In this document: positions 19,468 to 21,215 of the stretch, piece by piece
How the letters are laid out: the number at the start of each line of letters is the position of its first letter
How positions within the stretch are numbered: the stretch's first letter is position 1
DNA from: an uncultured Bacilli bacterium
GTDB lineage: Bacteria > Bacillota_I > Bacilli_A > RF39 > UBA660
Assembly: GCA_947591565.1 (NCBI GenBank)
Contig: CANQDH010000001.1
Span: 1-26,676 of the forward strand
Direction of reading: 5' to 3'
Length of the DNA stretch: 26,676 nucleotides
Program-made: the position numbers and the translations under genes
The notes under the pieces: generated by a model
What the model was told of the DNA's origin: nothing
Databases searched by the model: none
Seen by the model: the letters and a program-made list of their open reading frames with translations, nothing else

Positions 19468-21215
19468 TTATTTACTTAATCTTTCTTCAAGTATTTTTAA
19501 ATCATTTATTTCTTTTTCTAAAGTTTCCTTTTCGCTATCAACTATATTCTTTGGTGCTTTTTTAATATAGTTTTCATTTGAAAGTAAATTCTTTCGTCTT
19601 TCGATAGATTTTTCTAAACGTTCCTTTTCTTTAATTAAATTTTCTTTTTCTAAGATTTCATTACTAGAATTATCATAATATATTTCTATATTATCACCAT
19701 TAAAACCAATTTGAATATTTTTTAAATTATTATTTTTAAATTGTTCTTTATCAAGAATATTACTAATTTTTAACATTTTTTCAAAAATATTTATATTATT
19801 TTTAATAATATCATTATGATAAACTAAATAAAAATCTTTTCCTATGTTATTTTCTAATTTAACTTTTCTAATATTTTTGATAAGTTCAATAATACTTTCC
19901 ATATCTTTTACTTCATCAAAACAAAGTTTTTCATCATATTTAGGATAACTACTTAACATAATGGTTTCATCTTTAAGAGGTAATTTATCATATATTTCAT
20001 CAGTAACATAAGGCATAAATGGATGAAGCATTTTAAGGATATTCGTAAGAACTAAAAGTAAAACATTTTCATTTTTATTTATCTTTGATAGTTCAATATA
20101 CCAATCGCAAAAATCATCCCATACAAAATTATAAATTTCGGTTCCAACTACATTAAATTCATATTTTTCCATATGATGTCTTACCTTTTTGATACATTTA
20201 TGCATTTTGGTTAATATCCATTTATCTGAAATACTTAAATTATCTAAATGGAAACTCTTTTTATCAAAGGCACCTAAATTCATTAAAACAAATCTTGATG
20301 CGTTCCATAATTTGTTAATAAAATTCCAAGTTGCTTTTACTTTATCAGAATCATACTTTAAATCCATTCCTGGAGAAGTTTGCGTTGCCAAATAATATCT
20401 AAGAGCATCAGCACCGTACTCTTCAATAACATCCATAGGATCAACACCATTACCTAGTGATTTAGACATTTTTCTTCCTATTTTATCTCTGATAAGTCCA
20501 TGAATTAAACAGTCTTTAAATGGTCTTGTATTTGTAAATTCAAGGCCTTGAAAAGTCATTCGATTAACCCAAAAAGGTATAATATCATAACCTGTAACTA
20601 AAAGATTATTAGGATAATATCTTTTATAATCTTCAGTTTCATCAGGCCATCCTAGGCTAGAAAAAGGCCATAAAGCGCTAGAAAACCAAGTATCTAAAAC
20701 ATCAGGATCTTGAACCCATCCCTCTTCTTTTGGTGCTTCCATACCAACATAAATTTCATCATCTTTATACCACGCAGGAATTTGATGACCCCACCATAAT
20801 TGTCTAGATATGCACCAGTCATAAGTAATTTCCATCCAGTGGTTCATAACTTTTTCATATCTTTCAGGAACGAAATGAACTTTTGTATCTTTATTTTTTT
20901 GGTTTTCCAAAACACGATCAGCTAGTGGACGCATTTTAACAAACCACTGTTTTGACAAATATGGTTCAACGACAGCATCACTTCTTTCAGAATGGCCAAC
21001 AGAATGGATTATTTTTTCAACTTTAATTAATAAATTTGCTTTTTCTAAGTCTTTAACTAATTTTTCACGGCATTCTTCTCTTGTTAAGCCTTCATATGCA
21101 AAAGAATTTTCGTTCATGGTTGCATCTTTGTTGATGACGATAATTCTCTCTAAATTATGTCTATTTCCCACTTCAAAATCATTTGGATCATGGCAGGTGT
21201 TATTTTAACAACACC
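19468..21215 (-). pseudogene. valS: 5'-truncated, frameshifted type-1 (Bacillus-type) valyl-tRNA synthetase
   Basis: Homology starts at GVVKITPA (21215-21192). A 1-nt deletion at ~21192 precedes [12 protein letters not shown]. Retains [26 protein letters not shown] and the C-terminal coiled-coil arm. No HIGH motif and no RBS at the track's GTG start. Confidence 0.9.

Follow-up and report, generated by a model that had tools for sequence, protein, structure and literature searches.

Elements that depend on a large serine recombinase (LSR) can reside inside genes, as SPbeta does in spsM, skin in sigK and the A118-type phages in comK, and ICEs (integrative and conjugative elements) occupy essential or conserved genes, SXT/R391 in prfC and, in streptococci, ICEs at the 3′ end of guaA, of rpsI and of lysS. 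Second aminoacyl-tRNA synthetases (aaRSs) are carried on plasmids and islands, mupA/ileS2 (NCBIfam NF000257) among them. Omelchenko et al. (2003) and Andam and Gogarten have reportedly dealt with the displacement of genes by xenologs in situ and with homeoalleles of aaRSs. Here we describe the valine-tRNA ligase locus in a stretch of 26,676 nt, referred to below as the window, from contig CANQDH010000001.1 of assembly GCA_947591565.1, a metagenome-assembled genome (MAG; G000) of 947 kb and ~25% G+C that consists of 131 contigs and is 86.7% complete. The native, bacterial-type gene of this lineage (valS1) has lost its first third, and a complete type-2 gene (valS2) and the genes for a thiazole peptide stand in the place of the missing part. 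We consider it probable that the stretch is the decayed, recombinase-less relic of an integrative element that targets valS, and that the remaining piece of valS1, its stump, is a young pseudogene.

The locus resembles the LSR prophages in several respects. SPbeta, skin and the A118-type phages likewise insert site-specifically in the middle of a coding sequence, carry the recombinase next to attR and have a palindromic attP, and their precise excision would rebuild the gene. However, their targets are dispensable in growing cells, whereas the target here is an essential, single-copy aaRS gene for which a xenolog is supplied. The ICEs named above also use a conserved housekeeping gene as a universal landing site and compensate the damage they cause, but they supply a short substitute end, whereas here a whole, phylogenetically distant enzyme is provided and what stays behind of the native gene is two decaying pieces. 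As in displacement in situ, a foreign ortholog takes over the native place and regulation, and close relatives differ in a patchy manner as to which of the two enzyme types they have; trees were the basis on which earlier cases were inferred, and neither vehicle nor intermediate was known, whereas the vehicle, the att site and the stages of decay are visible here. Like valS2, mupA/ileS2 is a divergent class I synthetase on a mobile element, but genes of that kind are extra drug-resistance copies beside an intact native gene and here the carrier destroys the native gene. Searches of the open-access literature yielded no account of an element that targets valS, of this cluster or of the combination of a mid-gene site in an essential synthetase, a whole xenolog wired to a T-box and a visible series of decay.

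The stump was recognized by profile matches and by homology to congeners (19468-21219, minus strand) and corresponds to the 3′ two-thirds of the native gene. Its open frame (19468-21171) matches TIGR00422 at positions 284-862 and NF004349 at positions 278-859, that is, the C-terminal two-thirds only, with scores under both curated cut-offs (600.4 versus 612.1 bits and 630.2 versus 704 bits), and it does not qualify as a full-length bacterial-type valine-tRNA ligase. The first ~275 residues, with HIGH and the Rossmann fold's first half, are absent, and nothing precedes the TPAHD motif; the KMSKS loop, the anticodon-binding domain (PF08264, 1.1e-39) and the C-terminal coiled-coil arm (PF10458, 2.1e-06) are present. 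DNA homology to the valS1 genes of congeners begins at 21219. In comparison with every relative, one base is absent between 21193 and 21192 (relatives, ...CCTGCNCATGATCC; window, CCTGC-CATGATCC), which shifts the frame of the stump at codon ~9. An initial annotation of the window had proposed a type-1 valS without its first third and HIGH, a 1-nt deletion and 567 codons free of stops, and our analysis bears out all three. It had also asked whether the missing 5′ third survives elsewhere: neither that piece, nor another N-terminal piece, nor a second valS1 was found in the G000 assembly at its completeness of 86.7%.

An intact type-1 valS had been anticipated in relatives between a Gly-rich gene and a pilin gene, and this is what two congeners of G000 have. 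In G001 and G003 the order is Gly-rich gene, T-box, intact valS1 (open frames of 856-875 aa), pilin, lepA and thyA. The type IV pilin-like gene of the window (18847-19272, minus strand) forms the native right flank and serves as the synteny anchor, the order 3′ piece of valS1 (valS1C), pilin, lepA, thyA being shared by G001, G003 and the more distant locus L092. The broken copy in the window thus occupies the exact place of the congeners' only valS1, and its protein is 75-79% identical to the intact enzymes of the three congeners examined (G001-G003). The stump is, by position and identity, native valS1, shortened and out of frame when set against the orthologs that occupy the syntenic site.

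Upstream of the break on the same strand lies valS2 (23587-26007, minus strand), which encodes a complete type-2 (PRK13208-type) valine-tRNA ligase, as the initial annotation had recognized, and scores 999 bits against a cut-off of 738 with NF009687. The open reading frame (ORF) listed for it has 840 aa and begins at 26109, within the T-box leader; relatives have in common the ATG at 26007 as start, which gives 806 aa. The gene is the sole complete valyl-tRNA synthetase (ValRS) gene in the G000 assembly. Its product is 85-87.5% identical to the valS2 proteins of other elements that carry a YcaO gene, and it is foreign to the genus of G000. By contrast with the enzyme, the leader in front of it is native: the valine T-box (26062-26243, minus strand, 119 bits, specifier GUU) finds its best alignment in the leaders of valS1 in G001 and G003 and not in those of valS2 genes, and now lies 55 nt before valS2. 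The T-box terminator is at 26047-26077 (minus strand), and a promoter-like site, TTGCTA-17-TATAAT, precedes the T-box at 26254-26282 (minus strand; a consensus match only). The leader lacks ~25 nt in the Stem II region that are found in G001-G003, and the specifier of those three is GUA; GUU also occurs in the valS2 leaders of G008 and G012, which belong to valS2-only genera.

Native homology ends at 26029 on the left and restarts at 21219, and valS2-type homology runs from 26025. Therefore ~4.8 kb of foreign DNA (26025-21220) stands in place of the first ~275 codons of valS1. It comprises valS2, the gene for a SagB-YcaO maturase, the gene for a 35-aa precursor peptide and a terminator; the initial inventory of the locus had both valS genes and left the other three features unmentioned. 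Could this arrangement be an artefact, with the contig chimeric at 21220, or the stump a partial duplicate of an intact valS1 in the unassembled 13%? The fragmentation and completeness of the MAG lend such an explanation some room, but the same junction, codon and gene order occur in independent assemblies from other samples, one of them with the pilin-lepA-thyA flank, the broken copy lies precisely where congeners keep their sole valS1, and no repeat is common to the two junctions of the window. We regard it as very improbable.

The breakpoint recurs in other genomes. In public records the related genomes are Bacilli or Tenericutes MAGs from ruminant gut. YcaO homologs in other Bacilli-type MAGs (57-80% identity) are part of the same module in differing chromosomal surroundings, in the order valS2, sometimes a small RelA/SpoT gene, YcaO and a precursor of 35-38 aa. 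The valS1 stumps of these carriers all start at G-(V/F)-V-K-I-T-P-A-H-D-P-N-D-F, the break falling between G-V-V-K-I-T-P and AHDPNDF, and the same breakpoint is found at loci L053, L054, L055 and L040 (in genomes G032, G033, G034 and G031, respectively), L092 and L095. In the window these codons, part of an editing-domain motif, make up an attR-like junction core, GGTGTTGTTAAAATAACACC (21196-21215, minus strand), with native sequence 3′ of the core and element sequence 5′ of it. The window, L053 and L040 have in common a layout of stop, hairpin, ~25 nt and core. The stump of G032 is open over 590 codons, and those of G034, L092 and L095 comprise 574, 573 and 539 codons; in G033 the stump begins at the same codons, with a stop directly upstream, and in G031 it is a frameshifted vestige of ~50 aa. 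No stump follows the module at L043, L045 or L039. Both halves of valS1 are kept in G034, 12 kb of insert apart: the N-terminal piece (valS1N), a 303-aa ORF between the T-box/HD gene and valS2, is native valS1 as far as ...GTGVVKTTP. A shorter valS1N is kept between T-box and valS2 in G032 (L053 3934-4548), with 91 codons deleted in frame between the direct repeats GGATC(A/C)(T/A)GCTGC.

To place these events we took the C-terminal part of valS1 in 27 sequences, six of them truncated, and built a maximum-likelihood tree. The truncated copies are scattered, each with the intact copies of its own relatives, and the tree requires six changes, all six forced by well-supported branches. Every congener searched for G000, G032 and G034 has an intact valS1, the stump of G032 and the intact G037 gene have a protein identity of 90%, and in genus g99, home of the G031-like carrier G329, other species have valS1 matches. 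One insertion point is thus shared by independent hosts with empty-site relatives, and on the topology of this tree there are six independent insertion events at the G-V-V-K-I-T-P codons, in the window and in at least five other genomes. The initial annotation had read the locus as an in-place xenologous replacement. Native valS1 at the syntenic site and a foreign valS2 agree with that reading, but the replacement is no single event: the breakpoint recurs independently, and the locus has the look of a scar left by a site-specific element.

The replacement enzyme has moved between hosts. Identity among the valS2 copies that elements carry is 84-97%, whereas the valS1 sequences of their carriers are 61-71% identical, and the valS2 module therefore spread horizontally after the hosts had diverged. 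In an even sample of the order, 335 of 401 genomes have valS1 and 66, from mixed genera, lack it; the YcaO gene was found in 2 of the 401. Absences of valS1 are scattered inside genera, the gene being present, for example, in 18 of 21, 11 of 12 and 10 of 11 species. The valS2-only genera represented by G008, G011 and G012 have valS2 at 78-82% identity and no YcaO. From this distribution, replacement of valS1 appears frequent and recent in the family.

In three relatives (L055, L092 and L095) an LSR adjoins the valS1 stump. Directly before the stump of G034 lies an LSR-like ORF with Resolvase, Recombinase and Zn-ribbon domains. The first ~195 residues of this ORF (L055 11827-13818) are replaced by an unrelated transmembrane low-complexity segment; its Resolvase domain starts at model position 58 and the catalytic serine region is missing, so the element is immobilised. 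Intact LSRs of 548 aa, 62-77% identical to that of G034, lie directly upstream of valS1C at L092 and L095. Locus L092 reads valS2, RelA/SpoT, YcaO, precursor, HTH protein, sortase-like protein, LSR, valS1C, pilin, lepA ... thyA, which is the chromosomal context of the window in another genus, and its valS2 and YcaO are 85% and 70% identical to those of the window. Loci L095-L100 represent a conjugative element that has type IV secretion genes, encodes a VirB4-like ATPase, a coupling protein and an SNF2 helicase of 2122 aa, and is on record in many gut metagenome assemblies, Hadza samples included. Neither valS2 nor valS1N was found in the ~30 kb upstream of its LSR; the left end of this element lies beyond. 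The element also encodes, at L097-L100, a SpaA-type pilin with sortase, and it ends in the LSR abutting the stump; one small gene from L097-L100 recurs in 106 blocks of the collection of assemblies, Hadza gut samples among them.

The att sites of these relatives have the expected form. Rebuilding attP of G034 from the left arm of attR and the right arm of attL yields an imperfect palindrome, GTGTACCAAATGGTTTCGTGAAAACGACACCCCTTGGTACAAAC, i.e. TGTACCAAATGG...CCCTTGGTACA, as expected of a serine-recombinase attP, and the element-side arms of G032 are similar to those of G034. A core common to attL and attR, with imperfect inverted repeats in attP, is accordingly seen at L055 and L053, and at L055 valS1N terminates in the attL that matches; G000 has the attR side only. 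Besides the genes that define the module, some elements carry others. A small RelA/SpoT homolog (479-480 aa; HD_4, RelA_SpoT and TGS domains) stands between valS2 and YcaO in three of them (L040 6550-7989; L055 5545-6984; L092 2304-3746), so that a stringent-response gene travels with a T-box-controlled synthetase. In several lineages the valine T-box is separated from valS by a gene with an HD domain, with valS1 in G034 and with valS2 in others (L055 198-1043; L040 2807-3580; L043 4847-5575; L045 3726-4481).

How old is the break, and does the stump still function? Stumps keep 153 of the 153 residues that are invariant in intact genes. Their pairwise dN/dS is 0.10-0.20, against 0.15-0.24 for pairs of intact genes, values that are meaningful for the closer pairs only, dS being saturated for more distant ones (G033-G036). 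Tajima relative-rate tests give no protein-level acceleration, and in the valS1 tree the end branches of stumps are equal to those of their intact sister copies. Relaxed selection, in the form of raised dN/dS, a faster branch or lost invariant residues, was not detected, and by these measures the stumps are indistinguishable from intact genes. The valS1N piece of G032 provides a control. With 91 codons gone it is certainly dead, and yet comparison with G037 gives it a dN/dS of 0.077. A low ratio in a dead piece reflects divergence that preceded insertion, and the insertions are therefore young relative to the species splits. We also placed random substitutions on the stump frame of the window and recorded the fraction of sequences left free of stops: 40 substitutions (2.4%) left under 5%, which limits neutral divergence of the stump to ~2.4% at most (~40 substitutions or fewer). 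The initial annotation had inferred a very recent loss from the lack of stops. That argument is unsafe alone, as open stumps occur in several diverged lineages, but a recent loss is supported by the G032 control, and the open frame, the absence of rate acceleration and the bound from the simulation agree with it. We believe it likely that the stump is a young, non-functional pseudogene.

Altogether these findings lead us to propose the following history for the window. An integrative element of the LSR family would have inserted into valS1 at the G-V-V-K-I-T-P codons, in the editing-domain motif TPAHDPNDF, in an ancestor of the species after its split from G001-G003. At its attL end the element would have carried a complete xenologous valS2, oriented for read-in from the host's T-box-controlled valS promoter, and further inside the RRE-SagB-YcaO maturase (RRE, the leader-recognition domain) and the 35-aa thiazole-peptide precursor. 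With valS2 taking over the essential function, both halves of valS1 would have been free to decay. One later deletion may have removed the recombinase and other genes, from the terminator of the precursor gene to ~25 nt before the core (attR), and another valS1N and attL, which would have fused the native T-box to valS2.

Several observations weigh against this history and against the loss of function. The first concerns the stumps themselves: in AT-rich genomes seven of them are open over 539-590 codons with catalytic and invariant residues intact, which is what purifying selection on a truncated protein would also produce. At the nucleotide level, moreover, G000 gave mixed outcomes in relative-rate tests, with p = 0.006-0.06 when compared with G001 and G003 and none with G002. 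The 3′ piece could then be a functional, truncated ValRS-like protein kept by selection, for instance a factor that binds tRNA-Val, with the second half of the Rossmann fold and KMSKS, the anticodon-binding domain and the C-terminal tRNA arm; where the N-terminal piece survives, it could even be one subunit of a split ValRS. The recurrence of long open frames in seven independent carriers, the undiminished set of invariant residues and the dN/dS and branch lengths typical of intact genes fit this proposal, as do the open frames of both halves in G034. However, the break falls inside the editing domain and not at a domain border, a terminator lies directly upstream of the stump, and the stumps have no start codon or ribosome-binding site (RBS) in common, the frame being shifted in the window, a stop lying upstream in G033 and an ATG lying inside the terminator hairpin in G032. 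The vestige in G031 and the absence of any stump at L043, L045 and L039 are likewise hard to reconcile with a selected protein, the dead piece of G032 has an equally low dN/dS, and the lack of an N-terminal piece in the G000 assembly argues against a split enzyme. A functional fragment thus seems improbable to us.

The other points concern the vehicle and the assembly. Within the window there is no LSR gene (Resolvase, Recombinase and Zn ribbon) next to the att site and no attL, and LSR-mediated insertion in this lineage is therefore argued from relatives. Three LSR genes are present elsewhere in the 0.95-Mb genome, on contigs C109, C25 and C97 (L089-L091). They are 27-37% identical to the valS-associated LSR, which again does not help the proposed history, and we rejected them as trans-acting recombinases. 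The compact junction, in which precursor terminator, ~25 nt and core follow each other, is similar in G000, G032 and G031, as would fit a cassette that was already compact when it spread, be it through homologous recombination or with the help of a recombinase in trans. Finally, the junctions and the 1-nt deletion are those of the assembly, a MAG in 131 contigs. The exact sequence of the window's YcaO protein is on record in no other assembly, so that the species has no independent one.

The missing recombinase and the shared compact junction bring up a variant of our proposal that differs in the last transfer step only, namely that a compact valS2-YcaO-precursor cassette came from a related carrier by homologous recombination, with the T-box/valS1N side and valS1C as arms, and that no recombinase acted in this lineage. 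It is also in keeping with this variant that, over its first ~200 nt, the G000 stump resembles congeners no more than it does other lineages. In G032, however, both pieces are of native type right up to the core (87-91% nucleotide identity to G037), and sliding-window identity revealed no donor tract at the 5′ end of its stump; the left junction of G000, for its part, falls between terminator and valS2 RBS, where the sequence is non-homologous. We hold recombinational transfer of this kind to be possible but on balance unlikely, and favor site-specific insertion followed by decay.

The remainder of the foreign DNA encodes a peptide pathway. A single chain of 711 aa combines a SagB-type dehydrogenase with a YcaO cyclodehydratase (21439-23574, minus strand; PF00881, PF02624, TIGR03604 and TIGR03605), and its N-terminal ~130 aa are probably a leader-recognition domain (RRE). 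The precursor gene (21288-21395, minus strand) specifies a Cys-rich peptide of 35 aa, MKILKFKTVNYSNSNTQCACVTGGGGCACDDGTGE, which is 70-91% conserved and follows every YcaO homolog of the Bacilli group; after it comes a terminator-like hairpin with a U-run (21241-21276, minus strand; -11.2 kcal/mol, z = -3.56, with 0 of 200 shuffles folding as well). With a YcaO cyclodehydratase, a SagB-type dehydrogenase and a precursor rich in Cys, Ser and Thr, the genes form a linear azole peptide (TOMM/LAP) cluster. They are reminiscent of microcin B17-type clusters (McbA with McbBCD), which also pair a Cys/Gly-rich core peptide with a YcaO cyclodehydratase and an FMN dehydrogenase, but here all enzyme functions are on one chain, and the module is without a transporter or immunity gene and sits in a T-box/valS operon. 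The YcaO-SagB protein has 247 homologs. Those in MAGs of Saccharibacteria (TM7, Nanosyncoccus; L048-L051 and L056-L072) have the same single-chain architecture at ~45% identity, with a small ORF of 47-61 aa upstream and no ValRS nearby. This suggests that phyla living together in gut and rumen have exchanged the gene.

The linkage of this pathway to valS2 raises the possibility that the thiazole peptide inhibits type-1 ValRS, that valS2 is a self-resistance gene and that loss of the sensitive valS1 was selected, a scenario compatible with a mobile-element origin of the stump. Resistant aaRS copies are a known pattern in the clusters of aaRS inhibitors such as mupirocin, borrelidin, indolmycin and albomycin. 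Moreover, in at least 8 diverged elements there is tight linkage between valS2, YcaO and the precursor, all three in one orientation, with 12 nt separating valS2 from the maturase gene in the window. Yet valS2 is already explained as the replacement for the gene that the element breaks, genomes without valS1 far outnumber those with the YcaO gene in the sample described above (66 versus 2 of 401), and the homologs in Saccharibacteria do without a neighboring ValRS. Self-resistance to aaRS inhibitors is characterized by an extra copy in constant linkage beside an intact sensitive copy, whereas the housekeeping copy is broken here, and we know of no linear azole peptide that targets an aaRS. We consider this antibiotic scenario improbable, though less so than an assembly artefact. 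Apart from the valS locus, the window contains a gene for a 501-aa protein with collagen triple-helix repeats (4031-5536, plus strand; PF01391, 3e-32) at 42-45% G+C, compared with ~25% for the genome.

Replacement of an essential single-copy translation gene by a distant xenolog has until now mostly been inferred from trees. The loci described here can be arranged as a series, from the empty site through a split gene with both halves intact and a recombinase, an eroded N-terminal half, loss of the recombinase (the window) and a vestige to complete disappearance of the stump, and this series makes the process of displacement testable. If the proposed history is correct, a thiazole-peptide pathway with a single enzyme, undescribed so far and under the control of valine starvation, is the cargo, and conserved valS codons serve as the landing site in many species. 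On the sequence evidence we lean, by a modest degree, toward the view that these loci belong to a family of integrative and conjugative LSR elements in which an essential valS landing site and a replacement valS2 driven by the host T-box act together as a displacement ratchet. Insertion would be reversible at first, excision rebuilding valS1; after decay of either half, the host would depend on the element. Because it breaks an essential gene and brings the substitute, such an element would make sure that it is retained, with no toxin involved, and a ratchet of this kind may account for the patchy occurrence of valS2-only species in the family.

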